64,000 nucleotides of DNA from Elusimicrobiota bacterium (GCA_027371715.1 DAHXMM010000021.1:18923-82922), one strand, 5' to 3'; positions 348 through 13,074 are shown, counted from the stretch's first letter. Notes: generated by a model not told the origin, from the sequence alone. Made by a program: numbers and translations.

Positions 348-1384
348 AGGTTTGGCGGCAACGCGGGTTTGATTCGGCGAAAATGAAGATGCGAATGGCC
401 CAACGCGGGAAATTTCCAAATTTTAGAGGTCTCTTTCCCCGCAAAATCCGAGACGACGATCTTAAGGCCCGAAGAACCAACTGGAAAATTGGTTATTTTA
501 GGGAAACGAAAGAGAAACCTGCGGGGGTGGCCCATATCCACCTCGTTCTCCAAAATTTTTCCGTTTGAAAAAGAAAGCGGCGCGATTTGATAAACGGAAG
601 AAACGCCCATAAAAAAGTTTTTCCCGGGCAAATAGTCAAATTTTCTCTTGGCCAATAAAATATTCTTTCCCCCATGGCCTTTGAAAGCCCAAACCGAAAT
701 GGAAGCAGGCGTTGTCTCAACTGTTGAGGGAGAAATCACGTCAAAAGCGTCCACAATCAGGGCCGACACCTTGCTGGTTCGAGAAAGCGGAAAAATCTCA
801 TTTTTATCGTCGGCCAGGACGCGGTTTTTGGAGTCAATTAAATAAAGCCCGCGAATGACCGGAGGTTTATCGGCGGACAACTTTGGGAAAAATCTTAACG
901 GCTCTTGGTAATGCCCGTTTGAACTTATCACATTGATGTGAACATGCGGAAAAATCCCGTAACCCATTTGAGAGGCGTCATAAATTTTTCCCAGAAGGGC
1001 TCCGTCGGAAACAGTTCCTCCTTTTTTTGCCAAATCAAATAGAGAAGCAGGAATCGTTTTTGGATCGAGATGATGGAATTGCCAGACCGTCCCATTTTTT
1101 TGAACAATCGCAATTTGAAAAGTATAGGGAATTTTAATCCGGTAATAGTATCCCAGCGAGATTTTCCCGGAAACCGGCGCGTAGACCGGAGTTCCCGCCG
1201 GTTCCAGAATATCCAAGCCGTGATGAAAGCCAGGCTTGTCTCCGTAAAATTGAAGGGTATAAGCGAGATTTCCAACATGAATAGGCAGACCTTTAACGGG
1301 CCAAGGCACGACGGAAGCGCCGGTCTGAGAGAAAGAAACGACGGGTAAAAATAAGGGGAAAAGTAGAGCGGAGAGAGTTCTCAC
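344..1384 (-). CDS. secreted M23 (LytM-type) zinc metallopeptidase
   Basis: N-terminal signal peptide (LLFPLFLPVVSFSQT). HxxxD (HHGLD) and HxH (HVH) zinc-ligand motifs are present in the order typical of peptidase family M23. Confidence 0.6.
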   Translation of the reverse strand: MRTLSALLFPLFLPVVSFSQTGASVVPWPVKGLPIHVGNLAYTLQFYGDKPGFHHGLDILEPAGTPVYAPVSGKISLGYYYRIKIPYTFQIAIVQKNGTVWQFHHLDPKTIPASLFDLAKKGGTVSDGALLGKIYDASQMGYGIFPHVHINVISSNGHYQEPLRFFPKLSADKPPVIRGLYLIDSKNRVLADDKNEIFPLSRTSKVSALIVDAFDVISPSTVETTPASISVWAFKGHGGKNILLAKRKFDYLPGKNFFMGVSSVYQIAPLSFSNGKILENEVDMGHPRRFLFRFPKITNFPVGSSGLKIVVSDFAGKETSKIWKFPALGHSHLHFRRIKPALPPNL

Positions 1385-2631
1385 CGGGATTGAGAGAGCT
1401 TAAAATCTTCCGGAAATTTTTTCATGAAACCCCGGACCACCATCCCGACAGTGTCCCCCAAGGCGCAGATGACTTTTCCGGTGATGTTCTCGCCCACGCG
1501 CTGAAGATTGGGAAAATCGTCCTCCACTCCTTGGCCGGACATCACCCGCTCTAAAATCCGGGTCGTCCATTCGGAGCCCTCGCGACAGGGCGTGCATTGA
1601 CCGCAGGACTCATGGGCTAAAAAGCGTTCGATGTTGTGCGCCGTTTCCACCATATTCCGGGTCTCATCTAAAACGACAATTCCGCCTGCTCCCAGAAAAG
1701 TTCCCAAGCCCCTCAAACTTTCAAAATCCATCGGGACATCGATTTCAGAAGCGGCAATGGGAGGAGTAGAAGTCCCGCCGGGGATTACGCATTTAAGCGC
1801 GCGTCCGCCTTTGACGCCGCCCGTGGCTTCAATCATCTTTCGCAAAGGAGTTCCCATGGCAAACTCGTAAACTCCCGGCTTTTCAACGTCTCCCGAAATA
1901 GAGAAAAGTCCGGTTCCACCCGTTTTTGCGACCCCGACTTTTGCGAAGGCCTCTCCCCCATCTTTCAGAATATGAGGAAGCATGGCTAAAGTCTCGACAT
2001 TGTTGACCACGGTCGGCTGACCCATCAAACCTTTGACCGTCGGGAAGGGCGGAGGCTGCCGGGGCCAGGCTTTTTTGCCTTCCATCGTTTCAAGAAGAGC
2101 GGTGTCCAAGCCGCAAATATAAGCCCCGGCGCCGCGCATGAGCGAAATACGGCAAGAAAACCCGCTTCCTAAAATATTTTTTCCGATCAACCCCGCATGT
2201 TCCGCTTCGGCGATAGCCTTAGAGAGAATTTGATGTTGAACGGCATATTCACCTCGGATAAAAATAAACCCATCTTCGGCGCCAATCGCATAAGCGGCAA
2301 TTAAAATCCCCTCAAGAACGCTGTGCGGAGATTTAGTCATTAAAACGCGGTCTTTAAAACAGCCCGGTTCGGATTCATCCGCATTCGCCACCACATATCG
2401 AGGCCCCGGCAATTTATCCTTGGGCGGAACGGTCTCCCATTTCATGCCGGTGGCAAAACCCGCGCCGCCAAGCCCTCTCAAATTCGACTTTTTAACCTCG
2501 GCCGTCGCCTCGGCGGGCTTAAGTGAAAGAGCTTTTTTAAGTCCTTCGTAGCCGCCAAATTTTTTATATGTTTCCAACTCATGCAAATTCGGCTCGTCAA
2601 AATGTTTCGTTAAAATTTTAGTCTCGGTCAT
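1381..2631 (-). CDS. nuoF: NADH-quinone oxidoreductase subunit F
   Basis: GLGGAGFATGMKWE (NADH/FMN site) and ESCGQCTPCREG (4Fe-4S) motifs. Start assigned to the internal ATG (MTETKIL), which is preceded by GGAAACC. Its ATG overlaps the TGA of the upstream spacer mini-ORF. Confidence 0.9.
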   Translation of the reverse strand: MTETKILTKHFDEPNLHELETYKKFGGYEGLKKALSLKPAEATAEVKKSNLRGLGGAGFATGMKWETVPPKDKLPGPRYVVANADESEPGCFKDRVLMTKSPHSVLEGILIAAYAIGAEDGFIFIRGEYAVQHQILSKAIAEAEHAGLIGKNILGSGFSCRISLMRGAGAYICGLDTALLETMEGKKAWPRQPPPFPTVKGLMGQPTVVNNVETLAMLPHILKDGGEAFAKVGVAKTGGTGLFSISGDVEKPGVYEFAMGTPLRKMIEATGGVKGGRALKCVIPGGTSTPPIAASEIDVPMDFESLRGLGTFLGAGGIVVLDETRNMVETAHNIERFLAHESCGQCTPCREGSEWTTRILERVMSGQGVEDDFPNLQRVGENITGKVICALGDTVGMVVRGFMKKFPEDFKLSQSR

Positions 2632-2687
2632 GGTTTCCTTTTGCACAGACTCTGGCTCCAACCACTTCCTCGCTTAAGCTCGGTCAT
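2628..2687 (-). repeat. nuo intergenic spacer element, short form (19-codon mini-ORF bridging nuoE stop and nuoF start by ATGA overlaps)
   Basis: Minus-strand sequence ATGACCGAGCTTAAGCGAGGAAGTGGTTGG...AAAAGGAAACCATGA. The 5' and 3' modules are shared with the elements at 6539-6598, 7406-7519 and 8886-8999. Confidence 0.6.
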
Positions 2688-3178
2688 GCCACAATCTCGT
2701 TGATTAAATTTTCGGTCGCCTTGCCTTTTAGCTCTTCGTTAAAGATCACCGCCGGGGCGTGTTCGCAAGCGCCCAAACATTCCATTTCTTCCCAAGAAAA
2801 CTCGCCGTCCGGAGTCGTCTCAAATTCCTTAACCTTTAGTTTTTTCTCAAGGAAATCGGCAATTTTATCTGAACCCGCCATAGCGCAGGAAAGCCCGTGG
2901 CAAAGCCCGATTCTTTTTCTTCCGGTCGGTTTCTTGGTGAAAAGAGGAAAGAAAGTCGCAACCTGATGGACATGGTTTTGAGTTGTGTCAAAGATTTCAG
3001 CTAAATACGCCTCATCTTCCGGGCGCACGCACAAATGCCAGGTTTGGACCTGCCGCATGGCCTCTAAAAGGCCCATAATGGGATGCGGATAGGCCTTTGT
3101 CCAAGACTGAAGAATTTTTTCTTCCTCCGGGGAAAAAGGCGAAGTTTGATTCAAGGATTGCACTGTCAGAGAACTCAT
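2684..3178 (-). CDS. nuoE: NADH-quinone oxidoreductase subunit E (24 kDa, 2Fe-2S)
   Basis: Cys motifs CHGLSC...C..CLGACEHAP characteristic of NuoE/thioredoxin-like [2Fe-2S] subunit. Its ATG overlaps the upstream toxin gene stop (ATGA). Confidence 0.85.
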   Translation of the reverse strand: MSSLTVQSLNQTSPFSPEEEKILQSWTKAYPHPIMGLLEAMRQVQTWHLCVRPEDEAYLAEIFDTTQNHVHQVATFFPLFTKKPTGRKRIGLCHGLSCAMAGSDKIADFLEKKLKVKEFETTPDGEFSWEEMECLGACEHAPAVIFNEELKGKATENLINEIVA

Positions 3179-3567
3179 GGAGATGACCTCATCTTTTTCA
3201 AAGCTCCGTCAAAAGCGGCGACATAATCTTTTTGAGAAATGCTCATAAAAACCTTTTCCGACTCCCCCTCGCTGTAAACATGCGAAGTGATGTTGCGGTC
3301 TTTAAGCATGCTCAGGAAAACGCTCTCGTCCTTGATAATTCCCACTCGAAAAGCCTCTTCAAGGCAATCTTTTGGAAACCGGCAAGAAACGCCCTTATTC
3401 GAGAAATAAACCTTAAGGCTTTTCCAAAAAGCCTCGAAAGTGAACTCAAATCTTTGAACGACGCCGTCTTTCTCAAGCTCCGTCCTCGCGTCTAAAACTC
3501 CTTTTCTTAACGCCGCAAGAGCGTTTTCAAATTTTTTAATCGCCAGTTCTACTTCTTCATGATCCAT
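3175..3567 (-). CDS. hepT: HepT-like toxin, HI0074-family nucleotidyltransferase substrate-binding protein (HEPN superfamily)
   Basis: QRFEFTFEAFWKSLK and KDRNITSHVYSE (RNxxxHxY / Rx4-6H HEPN motif) blocks match the HI0074/TIGR01987 family. Overlaps the upstream MNT gene by 11 nt. Confidence 0.8.
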   Translation of the reverse strand: MDHEEVELAIKKFENALAALRKGVLDARTELEKDGVVQRFEFTFEAFWKSLKVYFSNKGVSCRFPKDCLEEAFRVGIIKDESVFLSMLKDRNITSHVYSEGESEKVFMSISQKDYVAAFDGALKKMRSSP

Positions 3568-3868
3568 AGACGACCATCCCCGTTCGGAGAATCAAATTCC
3601 TAAAATCCGCCTCGACGTCTTTTAAATAAACGACATCCACCTTATAAAGACCCCGCGCCTCGTCCATGCCGTCTTGAATTTTCCACTCAATGTCCTGGGT
3701 GGGCCTAGCCGCATCGACGCCCAAGTCAAAATCCGAACCTGGGAATTCCGTTCCCTTGGCCCGCGATCCGAATAGAATAATCCTTGACGGGGCAAGTTCT
3801 CTGACAAGGATATCCGTCGCTTTTTCAAGCACCTCTTTTTCTCGATAAGAGAATCGGGAGAAATCCAT
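3557..3868 (-). CDS. mntA: MntA-like antitoxin, minimal nucleotidyltransferase (HI0073-like)
   Basis: ILFGSRAKGTEFPGSDFDLGVD contains the GS...D.D nucleotidyltransferase signature. Sits immediately after the nuoD stop (TAAATG) and upstream of the HepT-like gene. Confidence 0.8.
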   Translation of the reverse strand: MDFSRFSYREKEVLEKATDILVRELAPSRIILFGSRAKGTEFPGSDFDLGVDAARPTQDIEWKIQDGMDEARGLYKVDVVYLKDVEADFRNLILRTGMVVYGS

Positions 3869-5188
3869 TTACCGGTCCAATTCTCCCGCGATCATATTGA
3901 CCGAACCAAAAGTCGGAACAATATCGGCCACCCATCCTCCATCGATGATTTTAGAAAGCGCCGCCATGGGGTTTAAGCACGGTGGGCGGCATCTGACGCG
4001 GTAAGGGCGATCTTCTCCGACGCTTACGATGTGAAAACCGAGCTCTCCGTTTCCGCCCTCGACCGCGAAATAAGTTTCTCCCGCGGGAATCCGAACTCCC
4101 CAATTCCACATCACCAGCTCGAAATGATTCATGAGTCCTTCAATGGAACCGTAGGTCTCTTCCTTCGGCGGCAAGACCGCGGAATGATTGGCGGCGCGGG
4201 CAACGCCGACCTCGCTTCGGTCGTAGCCCTCCAAGGTCGCATCCACCTTGGCCTTGTATTTTTTCAAGAGAGCGGTATCGCCTCTTTTACCCGCATCCTG
4301 ATAAACGAAAGCATCTTTCATTTCAGAAACTTCCAAGGAATGTTTACCCTCGGGAATTTGTTTCAGACATTGCTCAATTAAACGCAAGCTTTGCTCGATT
4401 TCAGCCATGCGCACTAAATAGCGATCGTAGTTGTCGCCATTGCGTCCGACGGGAATTTCAAAATCCAAGCGATCGTAAATCAAATAGGGATGCGCGCGCC
4501 GAAGGTCATAAGGAACGCCGGTTGAGCGCAAGAAGGGCCCCGTAATTCCATAAGCGATAGCGTCATTTTGGGAAATGACTCCAACATTTTCCATGCGATC
4601 ACGGAAAATGCGGTTCTTGGTCAGAAGCTTGTCGGAATCAACCACCGCTTCCCGCACTTTTCGAGAGACTTCGCGGAAATTTTCAGCAAAATTTTTGGGC
4701 AAATCGCCTTTAACCCCGCCAACCCGGGTGTAAGAAGTGGTCAACCGCGCCCCGGTCAACTGATCCACCATCTGATACAAAAATTCCCGCGCCTTGATGA
4801 GATAGAGAAAAACCGTGAAAGCCCCGAGTTCCATGGCCGAAGCCCCGACGCAGGTCAAATGATCGGTGACACGGGAAATCTCCGAGGCAATGGTTCGCAA
4901 GTACTGTCCGCGCTCCGGGATTTCGATTCCCGCCAGTTTTTCAACCGCCATGCAGTAGCCGACATTATTAATTAGCGGAGAGACGTAATTAAGACGATCC
5001 GTATAAGGCACGACATTGTTCCAAATCTCATTTTCCGATTGTTTCTCAAAAGCTCGGTGGAGATACCCAATTTCGGCGTCAGAATGGACGATCCTTTCGC
5101 CGTCTAATTCCAAAACCAGGCGAACGACGCCGTGCATGGCCGGATGCTGCGGGCCCATATTCAAAAGAAAGTTTTTTTGCTCAGTCAT
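3869..5188 (-). CDS. nuoD: NADH-quinone oxidoreductase subunit D (49 kDa)
   Basis: N-terminus MTEQKNFLLNMGPQHPAMHGVVRL and overall NuoD/NiFe-hydrogenase large-subunit-like sequence. Internal ATG chosen; it overlaps the HEPN gene stop as ATGA. Confidence 0.9.
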   Translation of the reverse strand: MTEQKNFLLNMGPQHPAMHGVVRLVLELDGERIVHSDAEIGYLHRAFEKQSENEIWNNVVPYTDRLNYVSPLINNVGYCMAVEKLAGIEIPERGQYLRTIASEISRVTDHLTCVGASAMELGAFTVFLYLIKAREFLYQMVDQLTGARLTTSYTRVGGVKGDLPKNFAENFREVSRKVREAVVDSDKLLTKNRIFRDRMENVGVISQNDAIAYGITGPFLRSTGVPYDLRRAHPYLIYDRLDFEIPVGRNGDNYDRYLVRMAEIEQSLRLIEQCLKQIPEGKHSLEVSEMKDAFVYQDAGKRGDTALLKKYKAKVDATLEGYDRSEVGVARAANHSAVLPPKEETYGSIEGLMNHFELVMWNWGVRIPAGETYFAVEGGNGELGFHIVSVGEDRPYRVRCRPPCLNPMAALSKIIDGGWVADIVPTFGSVNMIAGELDR

Positions 5189-5574
5189 TTTACCACTCCC
5201 AAAAACGGCTTGCAAACGGAAACGATGCGCTCCATGGCGTTGACCGCTTCTTCAGCCTCGGAATAAGCGGCAAAAGCCCCAGGATAGCGCAAATCCACTG
5301 AATATTTATTGAGATTATCCATATCTCTAGGATTCAATCGGGTCTCTAAATCTCCAAGCGACTTCGCCAAATCGAAAAGATCATGTATTTTTGAAAACAC
5401 GATGCCCTTAATGACAAGGACAGCTTTAATATATTTCTCCGCGCATTGTTGCGCATGAAAACAAGCGATATCTATCTGGCCGGGATCGGATTTTGCCTCT
5501 TCCAAAGATCGCTTGGCCGCTCGGCGATCAGCTTCAGCCTTGGATATCCACTCCTGAACATACTCATGACTCAT
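5185..5574 (-). CDS. HEPN-domain protein (PF05168-type), predicted toxin of a second HEPN/MNT pair
   Basis: ...CFHAQQCAEKYIKAVLVIKGIVFSKIHDLFDLAKSL...LRYPG matches the classic HEPN domain. Start placed at the internal ATG (MSHEYVQ) because the longer ORF would overlap the MNT gene by 240 nt. The chosen start overlaps the MNT gene by 11 nt. Confidence 0.7.
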   Translation of the reverse strand: MSHEYVQEWISKAEADRRAAKRSLEEAKSDPGQIDIACFHAQQCAEKYIKAVLVIKGIVFSKIHDLFDLAKSLGDLETRLNPRDMDNLNKYSVDLRYPGAFAAYSEAEEAVNAMERIVSVCKPFLGVVK

Positions 5575-5914
5575 AAAGCACTTTTCCGTGAGCAAGAACC
5601 TCTTTAAAAAAATAATCTCCGATTCTAAGTCTTTCCTCAAGCTCACGGGAACTCCGAACCAAAAGATCCAAGGGCCATTCATGAGTTCCGATTGCGCTAC
5701 TGACGAGATGGTAACGCTGAGTCTTGTCCATCGGAGAATCGAGAACGACAAACAAATCCACGTCGCTATCGGGGCCGGGGTTTCCATACGCATGGGAACC
5801 AAAAAGAATCACTTTCTTAGGATGCGTCTTTTCCACGATACGCCCGACCGCGCCCTCTATCCACGCACGCGGATCGGGGCGAAAACGAGCGGCTATTCCT
5901 CTAGGCTCAGTCAT
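5564..5914 (-). CDS. minimal nucleotidyltransferase (MNT) domain protein, predicted antitoxin of the second HEPN/MNT pair
   Basis: ILFGSHAYGNPGPDSDVDLFVV nucleotidyltransferase signature. Start ATGACTGAGCC overlaps the nuoC stop by 8 nt. Confidence 0.75.
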   Translation of the reverse strand: MTEPRGIAARFRPDPRAWIEGAVGRIVEKTHPKKVILFGSHAYGNPGPDSDVDLFVVLDSPMDKTQRYHLVSSAIGTHEWPLDLLVRSSRELEERLRIGDYFFKEVLAHGKVLYES

Positions 5915-6542
5915 ATTTCACCGTGGGCCGAATAATATTAAAGCTCGGACTATTTTCGCGATCACCAGAGGACGGGCCGATCAAAGGCTGCCTCTTGGTA
6001 ATCGGATAATCTTTGCGAAGTGGATGCCCTTGAAACTCTTCGTACATGAGAAGGCGTTTGATGTCGGGGCGGTCAATAAATGAAATTCCAAACATATCCC
6101 AAACTTCTCTCTCCAACCAGTCCGCAATCGGCCATAAACTCATGACCGAACGCAACACTGGAGGGTTTTCCGGAACTCCGCAATGAACATAAACTCGCCC
6201 CAGATCGTCTCCGGTTTTGGGGTCTAATTTCATCACGCGGTAAACAACCTCAAATCTTTCCTGAACCGGAGCTTTAAGACGCGGCTCATCTAAGCTATCT
6301 GTTCCAGGACGATGCGGAGTTCCGTATTCTTCTCCCTCGGCCGAAGCCAGGGGACGTGGGATAATTTGTTGTTGAAGGGGATGCGCCCGTTTCCAAGAAT
6401 CGGTTTTGTCTCCGGAAGAACCGTAGGCGGAATAGTCGACGGCAGTCAAATCAACGAGCATATTGTAGCCTTCGTTTTTAAGTTTCTTAAGAGTCTCAAA
6501 GGCCTCAGAAGCCGAAACCCGAATTTCTTTGATTTCAGTCAT
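5907..6542 (-). CDS. nuoC: NADH-quinone oxidoreductase subunit C (30 kDa)
   Basis: ERFEVVYRVMKLD and REVWDMFGISFIDRPDIKRLL blocks typical of NuoC. Internal ATG (MTEIKEI) after GGAAGGAAACC. Confidence 0.85.
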   Translation of the reverse strand: MTEIKEIRVSASEAFETLKKLKNEGYNMLVDLTAVDYSAYGSSGDKTDSWKRAHPLQQQIIPRPLASAEGEEYGTPHRPGTDSLDEPRLKAPVQERFEVVYRVMKLDPKTGDDLGRVYVHCGVPENPPVLRSVMSLWPIADWLEREVWDMFGISFIDRPDIKRLLMYEEFQGHPLRKDYPITKRQPLIGPSSGDRENSPSFNIIRPTVKYD

Positions 6543-6598
6543 GGTTTCCTTCCGTATGAACCTTTGAGACAACCATTTCCCCGCTTAGGCTCGGTCAT
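6539..6598 (-). repeat. nuo intergenic spacer element, short form (19-codon mini-ORF between nuoB and nuoC)
   Basis: ATGACCGAGCCTAAGCGGGGAAATGGTTG...ACGGAAGGAAACCATGA. The ATG overlaps the nuoB TGA and the TGA overlaps the nuoC ATG. Confidence 0.6.
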
Positions 6599-7071
6599 TT
6601 AATTGTCTCTCCCGCCTGCTTTTCAATTTTCTTTTGAAGAAGCATGAGTCCCTCCAAAACAATTTCAGGACGCGGCGGACACCCGGGAATGTAGACATCA
6701 ACCGGCACAATCGTGTCAATTCCCTGAACGGTTGAGTAATTATTGTAAAAACCACCAGTGCAAGTGCAAACGCCAAAAGCCACCACCCATTTAGGGGCGG
6801 CCATTTGGTCGTAAATACGGCGCAACACCGGGGCAATTTTATGAGAAATTGTTCCCACTACCATCAAACAATCGGCTTGCCGAGGAGAAAACCGCGGAAA
6901 GGCCGCGCCGAAGCGGTCTAAGTCATAATGAGACGCCGCGGTTGACATAAACTCCATTCCGCAACAAGCGGTGACAAAAGGGTATTGAAAAATCGAATAC
7001 TTTCGCGCCCAACCCAAGGCGGCGTCTAGTTGAGTCGTGACGACTCCATCTAAAGCTTCATCTACCGGCAT
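6595..7071 (-). CDS. nuoB: NADH-quinone oxidoreductase subunit B (20 kDa)
   Basis: CCGMEF...GVCTCTGG...GCPPRP cysteine motifs of NuoB. Start placed at the internal ATG (MPVDEA) behind a strong AGGGGGTG RBS. Confidence 0.85.
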   Translation of the reverse strand: MPVDEALDGVVTTQLDAALGWARKYSIFQYPFVTACCGMEFMSTAASHYDLDRFGAAFPRFSPRQADCLMVVGTISHKIAPVLRRIYDQMAAPKWVVAFGVCTCTGGFYNNYSTVQGIDTIVPVDVYIPGCPPRPEIVLEGLMLLQKKIEKQAGETIK

Positions 7072-7409
7072 TCTAACACCCCCTTCGCCCAAAAATATGC
7101 GACCATGAGGGCGGTAATTAAAACAAACAAGGTCACCGAAAAAACGCCCAGCAAGGTCAAATGCGAACGGCTCAGAGCCCATGGAAATAAAAGGGCGAGA
7201 TCGACGTCAAAGACGACAAAGAGAACCGCAAACTTCCAATAAAGAACAGAAATCTTTTCTTCCGCATGCTCAATAGGCGGCATTCCTGTTTCATACGGGA
7301 GATTGCCGTCTCCCTCGTGTTTAGGCGCGGGCCCTAAAAGACGCCCGGCATAAGTCATAATGGTCGCAATCGCGCCCACGACCAAAACATCTAAAATGAG
7401 AGCAATCAT
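7062..7409 (-). CDS. nuoA: NADH-quinone oxidoreductase subunit A
   Basis: Small three-TM protein with the typical NuoA C-terminus (FLLFDVDLAL...). Internal ATG (MIALIL) overlaps the spacer mini-ORF stop. Confidence 0.8.
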   Translation of the reverse strand: MIALILDVLVVGAIATIMTYAGRLLGPAPKHEGDGNLPYETGMPPIEHAEEKISVLYWKFAVLFVVFDVDLALLFPWALSRSHLTLLGVFSVTLFVLITALMVAYFWAKGVLECR

Positions 7410-7519
7410 GGTTTCCTTCCGTACGGACCTTGGATCCAACCATTTCTGACCGAATATAAATAAGGAAATGCCGCTTCCAAATTCCGTTTAAGATAGCGGC
7501 CTCGCTTAAGCTCGGTCAT
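7406..7519 (-). repeat. nuo intergenic spacer element, long form (37-codon mini-ORF between nuoN and nuoA)
   Basis: 112-nt region about 89% identical to 8886-8999. It equals the short form plus a 54-nt in-frame insertion ending in TTCGGTCAG, which is the inverted complement of the 5' TGACCGAG. Confidence 0.6.
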
Positions 7520-8889
7520 CCCAAAACCCTCTGAAACGCCGCTAAAATCCACGGCAAAAATCCGACAACCGCCGAATACGCGGCGCTTAAAGAAACGACC
7601 AGACTAACGGCGCCAGTCCCTACCGCGATTTTTGAATTCGCAACCCCTTCTTCTAAATATATTTCCCGGACAATACGAAGATAATAAACCAAAGCCGCCA
7701 AGGTGGCGAAAGAAGCGACCACTAAGGGAACATAGAGCCCGGCTTTAAAGGCCTGCCAGAAAATGAGAAATTTCGCCAAAAATCCGGCCGTCGGAGGAAT
7801 TCCGGCTAAAGACAAGGCTAAGGTGGCAAAACAAAAGGCCAAAACCGGGCGAGTTTTTCCTAAACCCCTTAAATCTTTCCATTCTGAAACTCCCGTCAAC
7901 TCCAGAAAGAAGAAAGCGCCGTTACTCATAAGAACATAGGAGAAAAGATAAAAGAAAATGGGAAGAGCGTTTTTCTCGTTGGCGCCCAGTAACAGCCACG
8001 CCCCCACTCCCAAAACCAAAACTCCCGCATGTCCTAAAGACGAATAAGCCAAAAGCCGTTGAAGCCGGGTTTGGTTTAAGGCCGCGAAAGCCGCGAAAAT
8101 CATCGTAAAGGCGCCGATAGCCGGAAGAAGAGAAACAAAACTCGCCTGGGAATATTGCCCCAGCCGCATCAAGAGAAAAACTCCGGCGGCCTTAACCGAA
8201 GTAGATAAAAATCCGGAGAGCATGGGTTCGGAAGCTTCATAAACATCGGGTAGCCAAAAATGCCAGGGAACCGCGCCAATTTTAAAAAGAGCCGCAATAG
8301 CCATAAGGCTAAACGCCGCTTGATCCAAGAAAGAGCCATTTCCGGCAAAGGCAAAACCGCCGGTCGCCGAATAATGACAGGCCAGTCCTAAGAGAAAAAA
8401 AGCGGCGCTGACCGATCCGGCAAAGAAATATTTAATGGCGGCTTCCCAAGAAGGCTGCCCTTTCGCCGGATTTAAAGCCACCAAGAGATAAACAGGAAGA
8501 CTCAAAAGCTCAAGCGAAATAAAGAGCATGAAAAGATTCGCCGAAAAAACCAAAAACGTCATTCCCAAAAGGCTTCCTAAAAGCAAAAGAACTGAAACCT
8601 CATCCGTCCAGGTTCCGGCGATAAAAAAAGGAAGCGCCCCTGCGTAAAAGACCCCACACCACGCCTTGGTTAGAGGATCGGCTTGAAGAAGAGTTGAGAT
8701 CGTTCCATTCACAGGATGAAGAAAAACAAATGCGGCCGCAAGAGTTAAGCTCAATAAACCTAGAACTCGAACAAGCCCCACATTGATTTTCTTAAAGAGA
8801 CCGACGCAAGCGACTCCCAATACTCCGCCAAACAAAGAAATCCCCGACCCCAATGGAACGATTCTTAAAAATAAGGAAACTGGGTTCAT
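7516..8889 (-). CDS. nuoN: NADH-quinone oxidoreductase subunit N
   Basis: Multi-TM antiporter-like protein with the WLPDVYEASEP motif typical of NuoN. Internal ATG (MNPVSL). Confidence 0.85.
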   Translation of the reverse strand: MNPVSLFLRIVPLGSGISLFGGVLGVACVGLFKKINVGLVRVLGLLSLTLAAAFVFLHPVNGTISTLLQADPLTKAWCGVFYAGALPFFIAGTWTDEVSVLLLLGSLLGMTFLVFSANLFMLFISLELLSLPVYLLVALNPAKGQPSWEAAIKYFFAGSVSAAFFLLGLACHYSATGGFAFAGNGSFLDQAAFSLMAIAALFKIGAVPWHFWLPDVYEASEPMLSGFLSTSVKAAGVFLLMRLGQYSQASFVSLLPAIGAFTMIFAAFAALNQTRLQRLLAYSSLGHAGVLVLGVGAWLLLGANEKNALPIFFYLFSYVLMSNGAFFFLELTGVSEWKDLRGLGKTRPVLAFCFATLALSLAGIPPTAGFLAKFLIFWQAFKAGLYVPLVVASFATLAALVYYLRIVREIYLEEGVANSKIAVGTGAVSLVVSLSAAYSAVVGFLPWILAAFQRVLG

Positions 8890-8999
8890 GGTTTCCTTCC
8901 GTGCGAACTTTTGAACCAACCATTTCTGACCGAATATAAATGAGGAAATGCCGTTTCCAAATTCTGTTTAAGAGAGTGGCCTCGCTTAGGCTCGGTCAT
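8886..8999 (-). repeat. nuo intergenic spacer element, long form (37-codon mini-ORF between nuoM and nuoN)
   Basis: Near-duplicate of 7406-7519 with the same ATGA overlaps at both ends. Confidence 0.6.
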
Positions 9000-10441
9000 A
9001 GAATAAGCTTCCCCACAGCGGGACCGACGATATTAAGAAGCGGCCCGGGATGAAGACCGATGACAAACATCGGGATGATGAGAAGCCAAAGAAGAGCTTG
9101 TTCCCTTAAATCTAAATCAAAAACCTTTGGGCTCACCGAGGCGGACTTTCTCTCGCCCAAGAAAACAGCCTGAAATGCGGGCAAAAGATAAAAGGCCGCG
9201 ATCGTCACGCCAAAAACGCCGACCACCGCAATCGGCAAGGAGACCTTCGCCATCCCGGATAAAGACATAAATTCTCCCACAAAGCCGTTCAAACCCGGAA
9301 GCCCGATGGAAGCAAAAACAGTCACGCCAAAAAAGAAGGTTAAAGTTGGAGCCTGGGACACCAAATCGCCGAAATCAGAAAGGCCTCTTTTATGAGTGCG
9401 TTCATAAAGGAACCCAACCATTAAAAATAAGGCTCCGGTCGTGAGACCATGGTTAATCAACTGCAAACTTCCTCCGGCAAGGCCTTGCTGAGTCCGGGAG
9501 GCGATTCCCAAAACACAAAAGCCCAAATGCGCAATTGAGGAATACGCAATCAAGCGTTTCAAATCCATCTGCGCCATCGCCGATAGCGCGCCGTAGATAA
9601 CATTGATCGCGGCAAGCCCCCCCAACCAAGGAAGAGCCTTCATCCCCCATTCAGGAAAGGCGGGAAGAAGCACGCGCAAAAACCCGTAAACCCCTACTTT
9701 AAGAAGAACTCCGGCCAAAATAATGGAGCCCGCCGCCGGGGCTTCCGTGTGCGCATCTGGAAGCCAGGTGTGAATGGGCACCAAGGGAATTTTAACCCCA
9801 AAGCCAATCACAAAAGCCGCGAAAGCGAGAATCGCGTAAAGCCCGCTATTGGGAGCTTTCAAAATATTCATGTCCCAGCTCCAAACGCCGGTCGTCTGAT
9901 GATGGAATACAACCAACGCCAGAATTCCCAAAAGAAGAAATAAACTCCCAAAGAAGGTAAATAGGAAAAATTTAATCGCCGCGTGCTTTCGGTTTTCAGA
10001 CCCCCAAAGACCGATGATAAAAAACATCGGAATCAGCATCGCTTCCCAGAAGATATAAAAGAAGAAAAGGTCTTGCGCGAGAAAAACTCCCATCACCGCG
10101 CCTTCAAGAAAAAGAAAAGACGCCCAAAAGCCCGCGGATAAATCTTGTTTCCAGGAAGACAAAAGAGCGATGATGGTCAAAAAAGCGTTTAGAAGACACA
10201 AGGCCCAGGACAAGCCGTCCATGGAAAACGAATAACTAATTCCGTAGGTAAGCAATTTCCCCGGCTCTGAAAGAGAAGCCAAATGCCCGCTCCAGAAACC
10301 CGTTCCGGCCTGTAAAACAAGATAAAATTCCATTGCCGCGCAGATAACCGAAATCCAGCGCGCGCGCACGTTAAAAGCGGGAGAAAGCAAAGTAAACAAA
10401 GCCCCTAAAATCGGAAAAACCCAAAAAAGCGTTAAAATCAT
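8996..10441 (-). CDS. nuoM: NADH-quinone oxidoreductase subunit M
   Basis: WLPDAHTEAPAAGS motif and Mrp-antiporter-like topology. Internal ATG (MILTLF) overlaps the nuoL stop as ATGA. Confidence 0.85.
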   Translation of the reverse strand: MILTLFWVFPILGALFTLLSPAFNVRARWISVICAAMEFYLVLQAGTGFWSGHLASLSEPGKLLTYGISYSFSMDGLSWALCLLNAFLTIIALLSSWKQDLSAGFWASFLFLEGAVMGVFLAQDLFFFYIFWEAMLIPMFFIIGLWGSENRKHAAIKFFLFTFFGSLFLLLGILALVVFHHQTTGVWSWDMNILKAPNSGLYAILAFAAFVIGFGVKIPLVPIHTWLPDAHTEAPAAGSIILAGVLLKVGVYGFLRVLLPAFPEWGMKALPWLGGLAAINVIYGALSAMAQMDLKRLIAYSSIAHLGFCVLGIASRTQQGLAGGSLQLINHGLTTGALFLMVGFLYERTHKRGLSDFGDLVSQAPTLTFFFGVTVFASIGLPGLNGFVGEFMSLSGMAKVSLPIAVVGVFGVTIAAFYLLPAFQAVFLGERKSASVSPKVFDLDLREQALLWLLIIPMFVIGLHPGPLLNIVGPAVGKLIL

Positions 10442-12297
10442 CTCAGCAACCTCAAAAGCATGACGCCTCCGCCTAAAAGTATCCACCACAAAGAGTCATT
10501 CAGGCGTCCGGAAGCCAAGGAAGAAACGCTTTTAGCCGCGTCTTCCGCCCAGGCGGAAGTGTTTTCAATCCACCCATCCCAGGTCTTTTTATCCCAGAAA
10601 ATACCCAACCAATAGCTCACTTCCTCAAAAAGTAATGTTAAAGCCCCAACCAGAGGTTTTACGCCAAAATCGGCGTCAAAACTTTTTTCAACCTGAGGAA
10701 CACTTTTGCGCCACACCCAATCGAAGGAAGACCATTGCATGGTCCAAAGATAAGCCGCCAAAATTCCAAGAGCGGCCATGGAGGTTGATCGGGTAAAAGA
10801 AGACCAGTCAAAGCCCGGAATCGCAATCAAAGGCGAAGTTCCCAGCCATCCGGAACTGACTAAATGATAAAACTGCGTTCCAAACCAGCCGATTCCCAAG
10901 GCTCCCAAAACGATGAAAAAAAGCGGGACGTTCATCATCGGGCCGGCCTCATGCGGGTGTTCCGGCGGATTTTGTTCTTTTCGAGGGCCTAGAAAAGCTA
11001 AAAAGAGCATCCGGAAAATATAAAAAGCGCTTAAAAAAGCGATGGCAAAACCGGCGACGGAAGCCCAGCCTCCGCGCTCAAAAGCGGCGCCAAGAATTGC
11101 GTCTTTACTATAAAAGCCCGCAAAAGGCCAAATCCCGCTCAAAGAAAAAGCCGCTATGATAAAGAAAGCGGCGGTGACCGGAATTTTCTTGAGGAGCCCG
11201 CCGGTCTCATCAACCGACGCGGTGGGTTTATGAAGGGCATGAGCGATGTTTCCGGCGCAAAGAAATAAAGCCGCCTTAAAAAACCCGTGGGTGAAAAGAT
11301 GAAAAACCGCGGATGAAACTTCGCCCAAGCCCAGACCAAAGGCCATAATGCCCAAATGACTGACGGTCGAATAAGCCAAGATACGTTTCAGGTCTTTTCT
11401 TGTGGCCGCGATAAGGCCCGAGAAAACCGCGGTCAAGGCCCCCACCGCCGCAATGGTATTAGGCAAATGCGGAACGAGCGAAATCAGCGGCCACGAACGC
11501 GCCATTAAAAATATTCCTGCCGTCACCATGGTCGCCGCGTGCATCAAGGCGGAAACAGGAGTAGGGCCTTCCATCGCATCGGGAAGCCAAAAATAAAGCG
11601 GAAACTGAGCTGATTTTGCTATCGCCGCGAGAAAAAGAAACCAACCCACATAGGAAATAGCGGGCGAGCCCTTTCCTAAAAGCGGAAACAAGGCGGCAAA
11701 GCGAGTTTGGGCGACAGGATAAACATTCATCAAAATTAAAAGCGCCAGGAAAAAGCCGATGTCTCCCACGCGATTGGTAAAGAAAGCCTGCAATGAAGCT
11801 CGTCTGGCCGAAGCCTTTTGATACCAAAAGCCGATCAATAAATAGGAAGAAAGGCCCACCATTTCCCAGAAAAGATACATCTGAACATAGTTGTTGGCCA
11901 CAACGAGACCAATCATCGAAAGATAAAAGAGATGGAAGGCCAGGAAAAAGCGTCCAAAAGCGGGATCATGTTCCATGTATCCACCGGCGTAAACATGAAT
12001 AAGCCCCCCAACTAAGGAAACCAGACACAACATCATCGCCGACAAGCCGTCCAAGCGAACTCCAAAGGAAACAGACCAAGACCCCAGCGGCATCCATTTA
12101 AAAGGAGAGACGTCTACAACATGGCCGGAATAAACCTGAGCCGCGATAATCGCCGCCGACACTCCCACCACCGCGCAAGAGAGAATCATCGGCCAATGCA
12201 TCCATTCCGGCTTCCTTTTTAAGAGGACGAAATATCCAAAAAGAAGAGCTGAAACCGGAGCGGCGAAAAGGCAGATGACCGAAAGAGGAATACCCAT
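10438..12297 (-). CDS. nuoL: NADH-quinone oxidoreductase subunit L
   Basis: 619-aa antiporter-like subunit with a long C-terminal extension. Conserved WLPDAMEGPTPVSALMHAATMV block. Confidence 0.85.
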   Translation of the reverse strand: MGIPLSVICLFAAPVSALLFGYFVLLKRKPEWMHWPMILSCAVVGVSAAIIAAQVYSGHVVDVSPFKWMPLGSWSVSFGVRLDGLSAMMLCLVSLVGGLIHVYAGGYMEHDPAFGRFFLAFHLFYLSMIGLVVANNYVQMYLFWEMVGLSSYLLIGFWYQKASARRASLQAFFTNRVGDIGFFLALLILMNVYPVAQTRFAALFPLLGKGSPAISYVGWFLFLAAIAKSAQFPLYFWLPDAMEGPTPVSALMHAATMVTAGIFLMARSWPLISLVPHLPNTIAAVGALTAVFSGLIAATRKDLKRILAYSTVSHLGIMAFGLGLGEVSSAVFHLFTHGFFKAALFLCAGNIAHALHKPTASVDETGGLLKKIPVTAAFFIIAAFSLSGIWPFAGFYSKDAILGAAFERGGWASVAGFAIAFLSAFYIFRMLFLAFLGPRKEQNPPEHPHEAGPMMNVPLFFIVLGALGIGWFGTQFYHLVSSGWLGTSPLIAIPGFDWSSFTRSTSMAALGILAAYLWTMQWSSFDWVWRKSVPQVEKSFDADFGVKPLVGALTLLFEEVSYWLGIFWDKKTWDGWIENTSAWAEDAAKSVSSLASGRLNDSLWWILLGGGVMLLRLLR

Positions 12298-12298
12298 A

Positions 12299-12595
12299 TC
12301 AGCCTTTCAACTCCATCAAGGCGTCCGAATCCGGAAGGGTTTTATTTTTTCTCAAATGCAAAATCAAGGAAAGTCCCACCACCGCTTCCGCCGCAGCCAC
12401 GCACAAGATAATTAAAGCCGCAGCCAGCCCATTTGAGTCTTGAAAAATTGAAGCCTGGGCGACCAAGGGAATCAGGGCGGCTGAAATCATAATTTCAAGT
12501 CCAAAAAGCATGAGTAAAAGTTGTTTGCGTAAAATCACCGCGCAAAGACCGGAAACAAAAAGAGCCGCCGAAATTAACCACGCCCAAGGGTTCAT
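12299..12595 (-). CDS. nuoK: NADH-quinone oxidoreductase subunit K
   Basis: 98-aa three-TM protein matching the NuoK family. Confidence 0.8.
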   Translation of the reverse strand: MNPWAWLISAALFVSGLCAVILRKQLLLMLFGLEIMISAALIPLVAQASIFQDSNGLAAALIILCVAAAEAVVGLSLILHLRKNKTLPDSDALMELKG

Positions 12596-13074
12596 GCGCC
12601 TTTCCTTTTCCCCACCAAGGCAAGTCCCGCTAAAAACATCAAAAGAGTCGCCGCCTCCGTTGCCGGAGAATAGGCCCCAAACAAAACCGACCCCACAGCT
12701 AAATTATTGGGCACAACCGCAGCCGTTGACAGAGAACCCGCGCCCCCGTGAAAAATCAAAAATAGTTCCACCAAAAATCCGGCTAAAAGAAGGGCCGCGA
12801 CCGGGCGCGGAAGCAAAAAACTCCCCCAAAGAGAACCCGTCGGTTTTGGAAACGCCATGATGACGACCACAACCAAGACCATGACCGCTCCGGCGTAAAT
12901 CACCATTTGCATGAGCCCCAGAAGCGGCGAGCCCGCCAAGGAAAAAAGGAGAGCCACCTGAAGCATGACGCACAAAAGGCACATCGCCGCCGCATAAAGG
13001 GATTTCTGGAAGAGCATGAGAACTGAAAAGAAAACCGCCAAGCCTCCCGCGATTAAGGTCATCCATCCAGCCAT
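12592..13074 (-). CDS. nuoJ: NADH-quinone oxidoreductase subunit J
   Basis: 160-aa membrane protein similar to NuoJ. Overlaps nuoK by 4 nt. Confidence 0.75.
   Translation of the reverse strand: MAGWMTLIAGGLAVFFSVLMLFQKSLYAAAMCLLCVMLQVALLFSLAGSPLLGLMQMVIYAGAVMVLVVVVIMAFPKPTGSLWGSFLLPRPVAALLLAGFLVELFLIFHGGAGSLSTAAVVPNNLAVGSVLFGAYSPATEAATLLMFLAGLALVGKRKGA

Follow-up and report, generated by a model that had tools for sequence, protein, structure and literature searches.

A short structured repeat occupies four gene junctions of a nuo (complex I) operon in the window, by which we mean the whole stretch of 64 000 nucleotides (nt) that was analysed (GCA_027371715.1, DAHXMM010000021.1:18923-82922), assigned to Elusimicrobiota by its NuoA. 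The four copies belong to a family that is dispersed over many Elusimicrobia. Its members stand at start codons, differ in presence between close relatives, keep a reading frame and form two hairpins with covarying pairs. We think it fairly probable (at about 0.6) that the family is a mobile or formerly mobile, modular repeat, analogous to the interspersed repetitive units of mycobacteria (MIRUs), and that it is tolerated at gene starts through a translation relay, in which ribosomes would be passed along a mini-open reading frame (mini-ORF) carried by each copy. The window copies, with the extra block (module B) present in two of them, are the following.

2628..2687, minus strand: short element at the nuoE/nuoF junction, 60 nt, mini-ORF MTELKRGSGWSQSLCKRKP followed by the stop; element nt 1 is window position 2687
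6539..6598, minus strand: short element at the nuoB/nuoC junction, 60 nt, mini-ORF MTEPKRGNGCLKGSYGRKP followed by the stop
7406..7519, minus strand: long element at the nuoN/nuoA junction, 114 nt, mini-ORF of 37 codons
8886..8999, minus strand: long element at the nuoM/nuoN junction, 114 nt, mini-ORF of 37 codons
7446..7499, minus strand: module B in the N-A copy, 54 nt, element nt 21-74, its 3′ end UUCGGUCA pairing with the 5′ UGACCGAG
8926..8979, minus strand: module B in the M-N copy, 54 nt

Four related spacers in the nuo operon

A preliminary description, made from the sequence alone, had reported related spacers at the E-F, B-C, N-A and M-N junctions, with an ATGA overlap at both ends of each. 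Both points hold for all four copies, which lie on the minus strand and are co-oriented with each other: the 5′ ATG overlaps the TGA of the upstream gene and the terminal TGA overlaps the ATG of the downstream gene. The 5′ module, ATGACCGAGCYTAAGCGRGG, has four exact matches in the 64 kb, a number reached in none of 100 shuffles, and the 3′ module, ACGGAAGGAAACCATGA, is exact in three of the four copies, the E-F copy reading GCAAAAGGAAACCATGA with three mismatches. A search with nhmmer for further copies found none in the 64 kb. The nuo identity of the flanking genes is confirmed by Pfam, and the J/K and L/M junctions of the same operon are ATGA overlaps that hold no element.

The mini-ORFs comprise 19 sense codons in the 60-nt form and 37 in the 114-nt form. 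The earlier statement that the length is a multiple of three is right if one counts through the end of the overlapping TGA, and wrong for the ATG-to-ATG spacing, which is 56 or 110 nt. As had been proposed, the long form equals the short form plus a 54-nt insertion, module B, whose end is the inverted complement of the 5′ part and forms with UGACCGAG an 8-bp stem. The identity of the two long copies is 90.4% (11 differences over 114 positions) and not the roughly 89% given before; and it is not most but all 11 of these differences that are non-synonymous in the mini-ORF frame.

A dispersed and modular family

A scan for the 5′ module, using one genome per species, matched 48 loci. About 42 of them lie in metagenome-assembled genomes (MAGs) of Elusimicrobia, belonging to 19 assemblies, and all of these share a common downstream architecture; the remaining few loci have nothing of the rest of the element and are consistent with chance. 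A second scan, with a core pattern that required neither ATGA, brought 21 more copies, for which the preceding tetranucleotide was ATGA (14 cases), GTGA (5) or CTGA (2, one orthologous pair). The same unit is thus found in at least 19 Elusimicrobia MAGs, almost always adjoining start codons, and by exact-match patterns individual MAGs hold at least 5-10 copies (JACRNU01, JAJZCM01, JAKAQO01, JAJZJF01). Copies within one genome are kin, so that copy counts overstate independence and counts of length classes and modules are more conservative. These results do away with the idea that we are dealing with a peculiarity of the complex I operon, since copies are dispersed at many unrelated genes in many Elusimicrobia and the same nuo junctions of close relatives are devoid of them; for the organisation as such, a precedent is described in MIRUs.

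Read from 5′ to 3′, the unit consists of the 5′ module, AAAUGGUYGC, a loop with GGAGG or GGAAGGA, GCRACC and the start codon of the gene. Its length is 57 nt where the genome is high in GC, 60 nt where it is low, and 111-180 nt when extra modules are present. The GC content of the host genomes ranges from 48% (approximately, for the relatives of the window) to 66-69% (groundwater lineages), and over this entire range a 26-nt 5′ core is near-invariant. The genes downstream are unrelated housekeeping genes, and further nuo junctions are among the sites, including D/E in BP4.bin73 and F/G in NC_groundwater_1943. Module B recurs in L009, L022, L028, L037 and L039. Tandem, nested and internally deleted copies all exist; the tandem ones are pairs (L022, L061, L014), and neither longer arrays nor strain-level variation in copy number was seen. 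A module C is nested in the hairpin-2 loop (see below) of three copies (L020 552-632, L022 2065-2141, L039 6923-6999); it opens with a hairpin-1 motif of its own (GACCGAGY-loop-GGCGAGG), followed by a GCCGC...GCGGC hairpin like that of module B. This arrangement suggests that the hairpin-1 unit itself may be the repeated or mobile core.

The core was not found in the viral contigs scanned, and a permissive Rfam scan of window positions 2400-9300 gave no relevant match at E ≤10. The element was not described in the literature that we searched on leaderless transcripts in Elusimicrobia, on repeats and on miniature inverted-repeat transposable elements (MITEs) that carry Shine-Dalgarno (SD) or start signals; as far as we could find, this repeat has no earlier description in the phylum.

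Filled and empty junctions in relatives

Comparison with relatives that share the operon shows which of its junctions are occupied in each. The closest one with a long contig, L004 (and L005, GCA_021819565.1), has a NuoA 92% identical to that of the window and the same operon, and shows nothing but a 4-nt ATGA overlap at M/N, N/A, B/C and E/F. The N/A and B/C junctions are also empty in L073 and L074 (80% and 82% NuoA identity), and so are B/C, as ATGA, in YF2.bin79 and M/N in L074; LSA5.bin12 (L008) carries a short copy at M/N. Altogether, NuoA identity is 77-92% among the relatives in which a bare ATGA stands where the window has an element. A filled site reads ATGA, 52 or 106 nt, ATGA, and an empty one a single ATGA; elsewhere, the site filled in L039 is empty in L060. 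Since relatives have the bare ATGA at the very same junctions, the window's nuo copies are, on this comparative evidence, insertions.

Four states of the nuoE/F junction were observed. It is empty in L004; in the window it holds the short form and in YF2.bin79 the long one, which shares its 3′ part with the short copy of the window; LSA5.bin12 has a tandem of two copies that differ from each other. YF2.bin79 has, in addition, a complete short copy (detected with nhmmer) at nuoC/D, where the window has the MNT1/HEPN1 pair. LSA5.bin12 and L004 are about 94% identical in NuoN and NuoF, yet differ in occupancy at no fewer than two junctions; the gains or losses are therefore recent and precise.

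Several other observations concern these junctions and the sequences next to them. The nuo operon draws insertions of more than one kind at its junctions, the repeat element being one and a classical MITE another: in a relative with 77% NuoA identity, the nuoN/nuoA junction holds a MITE of about 285 bp (L075 2370-2658) with perfect 23-bp terminal inverted repeats (GGGCTCGCAACGAAACAATATGA). In the 710-nt contig L003 a short element connects a NUDIX-like gene with nuoA; in YF2.bin79 (L019 1850-2040) this gene is linked by a bare ATGA to gatB, downstream of it, so that L003 is either an assembly chimera through the repeat or the product of recombination between two copies of the element. NuoF is two codons (ATGACCGAG and then ACT) longer in the window (2622-2631) and in YF2 than in L004. 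Sequence of the 5′ module also occurs in the 5′ end of genes: NuoC of YF2 (L028) begins with ATGACTGAGCTTAAAGAAATG, a secreted protein in L025 (702-737) begins with MTEHKRGNG, and the module sequence is again present at L043 714. The element seems, from these cases, to contribute N-terminal codons to host genes.

Position at start codons

About 47 of 52 copies from the genome scan adjoin a substantial downstream ORF in the same orientation, and about one copy in two overlaps, at its 5′ end, the TGA that closes a long upstream ORF. An A comes directly after the downstream start codon in 92% of the copies (57/62) and in 45% of 398 control ORFs; the second codon is ACC in 21% and 7%, respectively. 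When a long upstream ORF is lacking, other signals are found in its place: in 9 of 34 such copies a -10-like hexamer ends exactly 6 nt before element nt 1, which occurs in none of the 25 operon-internal copies, and several further ones have an SD sequence 5-9 nt upstream of the 5′ [A/G]TG. The 5′ [A/G]TG is therefore always found in a genuine start context, in that it overlaps a stop codon, follows an SD or comes exactly 6 nt after a -10 box (the leaderless configuration), and we take this to mean that the element was inserted at the start codon of the gene itself. The same 6-nt spacing to a -10-like hexamer is shared by 4 of 40 ordinary gene starts of the window (13074, which is nuoJ, the first gene of the operon, 22603, 37359 and 42319); the use of leaderless mRNAs in this lineage is thus plausible.

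Frame conservation

The main start lies at offset 2 (modulo 3) from the 5′ ATG in 55 of 62 distinct copies, and no other offset lets the overlapping TGA close the mini-ORF. The rule survives changes of length: the relay frame is found in 9 of 14 length classes (50, 53, 56, 89, 107 with two architectures, 110, 161 and 176 nt), three of the other classes being in-frame fusions to the gene and two being in the third phase. All four large modules have lengths divisible by three, namely B with 54 nt, C with 51 or 54 nt and D with 66 nt. In L023, the orthologue of a gene that bears an element in L032 is preceded by a relic of only 24 nt, ATGACCGAGCTCCAGCGACCATGA, from which both hairpins have been deleted; its ATG and TGA are still in frame with each other and still overlap the gene start. 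These comparative data fit the relay through a mini-ORF that had been proposed for the four spacers, the translation itself being deduced. They also agree with the earlier suspicion that the constraint bears on frame or nucleotide structure and not on the peptide.

Indeed, the mini-ORF peptide is not conserved. In the high-GC class pN/pS (the ratio of non-synonymous to synonymous polymorphism) comes to 3.16 in the frame of the mini-ORF. Within the N-terminal part that is conserved, synonymous sites do not vary, while residue 4 is L, P or H, as its codon includes the free base in the loop of hairpin 1. One could argue that the mini-ORFs are genes for small functional proteins, such as accessory complex I subunits, since their frames are open and coupled to nuo genes and possess start codons. 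This is nevertheless very improbable and, as far as a conserved small protein is concerned, rejected by the substitution pattern just described, to which the two long copies of the window add their 11 replacements out of 11; besides, the peptides vary in length from 7 to 59 residues, and the unit precedes unrelated genes and is missing from the nuo operons of close relatives.

A second frame deserves separate consideration. In the hairpin-2 loop of the high-GC class (alignment columns 28-46), the variable columns are exactly 3 nt apart, with entropies by phase of 6.06, 2.35 and 1.23 (permutation p 0.012), and they coincide with the third positions of the +1 frame, which is opened by the internal AUG of hairpin 2. 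For this class pN/pS is 0.32 in the +1 frame, and 8 of 11 differences between the long copies of the window (7406-7446 versus 8886-8926) are synonymous in it. The products would be MVASIAVGG[DN]H for high-GC copies and MVGS[RK]x[RC]T[KE]GNH for low-GC copies; we take them to resemble motifs of macrolide-arrest leader peptides (IAVV-like and +x+), a likeness that may be coincidental. Could the +1 frame, opened by the AUG in GAAAUGGU, be a selected regulatory upstream ORF overlapping the gene start, perhaps acting through the sequence of the peptide MVASIAVGG[DN]H? The periodicity and the low pN/pS speak for it, as does the variable loop base of hairpin 1, which in this frame yields Leu, Leu or Ile. 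We nonetheless regard it as quite unlikely, since the SD-like GAGG ends just 2 nt before the internal AUG, which is base-paired in hairpin 2 and whose conservation is already accounted for by pairing with the main start, no stop is conserved (the median extension of the frame into the gene is 98 nt, versus 92 nt in controls), and the signal is absent across the low-GC class and in module B. An internal-AUG ORF as a defined small gene was likewise rejected, for want of a conserved stop and because the long open versions are spurious frames of high-GC DNA. An antisense ORF as the cause of the periodicity is out for the long copies, where the frame contains TAA (pN/pS 0.39), and module B as a coding sequence was discarded because no frame stands out in it.

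RNA structure

An alignment of 50 distinct short copies supports two hairpins, which RNAalifold also gives independently. Hairpin 1 is CCGAGC-NUAA-GCGAGG; hairpin 2 encloses the SD, on the 3′ side of its loop, and pairs with the next AUG, its 3′ arm holding the A and U of the main start codon. In this model 92.5% of the cells are paired, compared with at most 42% when the 3′ partner columns are slid. Compensatory changes are present in both: pair 28-54 is U-A in 30 sequences, C-G in 18 and broken in one, and in hairpin 1 one C-G pair is changed to U-A in the nuoC/D copy of YF2. The 57-nt class has a significantly more stable fold than shuffled sequences (mean -20.1 kcal/mol, mean z -2.4), the main AUG being paired in 27 of 28 cases. 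Likenesses of the hairpins to attC sites, hammerhead ribozymes or K-turns, judged informally, were dropped, as the order or spacing of the motifs did not fit.

A proposed translation relay and its alternatives

We propose the following mechanism. The repeat would insert exactly at ATGA start codons and leave an ATGA at both ends. The 5′ ATGA would then keep the original initiation signal of the gene, whether a stop-start overlap, an SD or a leaderless transcription start, and a ribosome starting there would translate the short frame of the element. In doing so it would melt hairpin 2, which otherwise engages the AUG of the gene in pairing and flanks the element-borne SD, terminate at the UGA overlapping the gene's AUG, and pass translation on through a -4 overlap. 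Because the mini-ORF would hand the ribosomes on in this way, an insertion should cost the host little, and selection would afterwards maintain its frame. The conservation of hairpin 1 and of the hairpin-2 stem at the nucleotide level may serve recognition, whether by a factor of the host or by the machinery of mobilisation.

A number of points weigh against this explanation. Translation of the mini-ORF, its coupling to the gene, the transcription starts and mobility as a process are all deduced from sequence. Seven of the 62 copies violate the frame rule (five of them being in-frame fusions with the gene), and the +1 frame is equally open, so that the absence of stops does not discriminate between the two; the periodicity of the loop, moreover, favours the +1 frame over that of the mini-ORF and is left unexplained by the relay. 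The 60-nt class, to which the window copies belong, folds weakly (z -0.4, main AUG paired in 15 of 23). Neither a transposase nor terminal inverted repeats nor an autonomous parent was seen among the copies examined, and the spread could be due to recombination or gene conversion. The scan patterns needed near-exact cores, so that decayed copies and copies away from start codons are under-sampled. Hairpin 1 is near-invariant between lineages with only 55-60% NuoA identity, and orthologous copies are no less alike than the adjacent coding DNA (94% versus 83%, 98% versus 93% and 92% versus 87%); both observations agree equally well with a host function and with a selfish element.

The last two points lead to another possibility, namely that the element is a regulatory leader selected by the host: hairpin 1 would bind a protein, an RNA or a ligand, hairpin 2 would gate the start, and the copies would together make up a post-transcriptional regulon, comparable to REP2 of Neisseria. 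The near-invariant 5′ core, the covariation in both hairpins, the sequestered start codon and the keeping of orthologous copies with slightly more conservation than their coding neighbours would all be expected from such a leader; promoter-proximal copies start at the predicted +1 position, and upstream repeats of the REP2 type, with a ribosome-binding site and ATG, provide a precedent. What makes us consider it unlikely, although the most serious of the alternatives, is that presence or absence varies between genomes with about 94% protein identity and that the set of genes bearing the element is heterogeneous and differs by genome. Tandem, nested and deleted copies, the L023 relic, in which the gene and the frame persist without either hairpin, and the lack of an Rfam match point the same way.

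Returning to the MIRU-like repeat, one may go further and imagine a structured coloniser of start codons, present over much of the phylum, that turns leaderless, SD-led and overlap-coupled genes alike into two-step relays through a mini-ORF, with the invariant, GA-containing hairpin 1 as a handle for mobilisation or for global translational control and with a second frame in the hairpin-2 loop under selection at the amino-acid level. Such an element would go beyond a look-alike of MIRUs and represent a novel interaction of mobile DNA with translation initiation. In this extended form the proposal is speculative, and we think it unlikely.

The host operon and its cassettes

Two further features of the window concern the surroundings of the elements.

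1381..13074, minus strand: host operon nuoJ-K-L-M-N-A-B-C-(MNT/HEPN)-D-(MNT/NTase_sub_bind)-E-F, from Pfam and the ORF list
5902..5914, minus strand: ATGACTGAGCCTA, at the nuoC stop and MNT1 start, resembling the 5′ module of the element; a remnant or ancestral nuoC 3′ sequence

The order of the nuo genes is permuted (J-K-L-M-N-A-B-C-D-E-F), with PorV upstream, and is equal in L004; nuoG, H and I are absent from the nuo cluster of the window. The operon contains two toxin-antitoxin pairs of the MNT/HEPN type, one at C/D and one at D/E (window positions 3175-3868 and 5185-5914 on the minus strand), which are linked to the nuo genes via ATGA or stop-ATG junctions. L004 has the C/D pair only, and YF2.bin79 has the repeat element at C/D instead.

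One may ask, then, whether gene cassettes such as these pairs have decayed into the spacers, given that MNT1 starts with ATGACTGAGCCTA, which is like the 5′ module, and that the element of YF2.bin79 sits where the window has a cassette. The similarity is confined to 13 nt at the nuoC stop, and the MNT homology with L004 starts only at FRPDP, downstream of ATGACTGAGCCTA; furthermore, the same two-hairpin architecture is found at dozens of loci free of cassettes. We rejected this origin, which is the least probable of all those considered.

Implications

If our explanation is true, start-codon repeats with a relay ORF are a recurrent strategy and not a mycobacterial oddity, having arisen in an unrelated and largely uncultured phylum. 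They would provide a second, structurally richer system in which to see how a gene can receive mobile DNA at its most sensitive position and escape silencing. The strong conservation of hairpin 1 points to a putative binding factor. There are also consequences for annotation, since gene callers may call or miss ORFs of 18-59 codons and mis-assign starts, as in the in-frame fusions and in NuoF and MNT1, with codons that may derive from the element. Finally, within about 57 nt the unit offers, in compact and natural form, both a start site needing no leader of its own, which in promoter-proximal copies coincides with the predicted leaderless transcription start, and an SD-led, hairpin-gated re-start; it may serve as a translational coupling cassette.

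Comparison with known systems

Several families of bacterial repeats share some of these properties. The ends of the element, ATGACCGAGC and GCRACCATGA, are not mutual inverted repeats, which sets it apart from MITEs of the terminal-inverted-repeat type. For palindrome-associated transposable elements (PATEs) derived from IS200/IS605 one would expect similar subterminal hairpins at both ends, insertion 3′ of a fixed tetranucleotide and an associated Y1 transposase; the Elusimicrobia repeat has a fixed tetranucleotide and a hairpin near each end, but its two hairpins are unrelated in sequence, and neither a transposase nor an autonomous copy was found. REP2 of Neisseria is longer, has a promoter, and no ATGA-bounded relay mini-ORF is described for it (PMC3184786). 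Also in contrast with REP2, and with IR-A/IR-B of Borrelia, the Elusimicrobia copies start at the predicted transcription start and not upstream of it, and they occur inside operons as well. Rickettsia palindromic elements, according to work cited in PMC3184786, are another selfish repeat that survives as an insertion by keeping the frame open; those become part of the host protein, whereas the Elusimicrobia element lies between genes and supplies a start and a stop of its own, with few copies (the 61-nt class and L025) being fused. Coupled short upstream ORFs, the leaderless ones of mycobacteria among them, likewise deliver ribosomes to an overlapping start, leaderless initiation taking place at a 5′-terminal AUG or GUG (PMC12548453, PMC4633059); those ORFs are locus-specific, whereas here they are copies of one dispersed, structured repeat.

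The closest parallel is with MIRUs. These are units of 40-100 bp, present in 40-50 copies per genome and transcribed polycistronically, for which empty and filled sites, tetranucleotide direct repeats and ORFs overlapping the adjacent genes have been reported (PMC3184786). According to a 2025 review (PMC12548453, citing Supply et al. 1997), they appear to insert at start codons, with an internal ORF coupled at -4, and the insertion is thought probably to minimise the effect on expression. The Elusimicrobia repeats are similarly short and dispersed, co-oriented and, by prediction, co-transcribed with their neighbours, and located at start codons or intercistronic junctions; they have a small ORF overlapping the neighbouring stop and start at -4 (in the 55 copies that keep the frame), are flanked by a tetranucleotide direct repeat that is a single ATGA in L004, L073, L074 and L060, and can be in tandem. 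They differ from MIRUs in being mostly single, and not in long variable-number tandem repeat arrays, in having two covarying hairpins, the second of which would gate the SD and start codon, in standing in many cases at predicted leaderless transcription starts, and in a modular build with nested insertions (B, C and D) around a core conserved over a very wide range of GC content. By architecture, then, we would class the Elusimicrobia repeats with MIRUs as a kind and not as members of the MIRU family, homology being unlikely between elements of different phyla.

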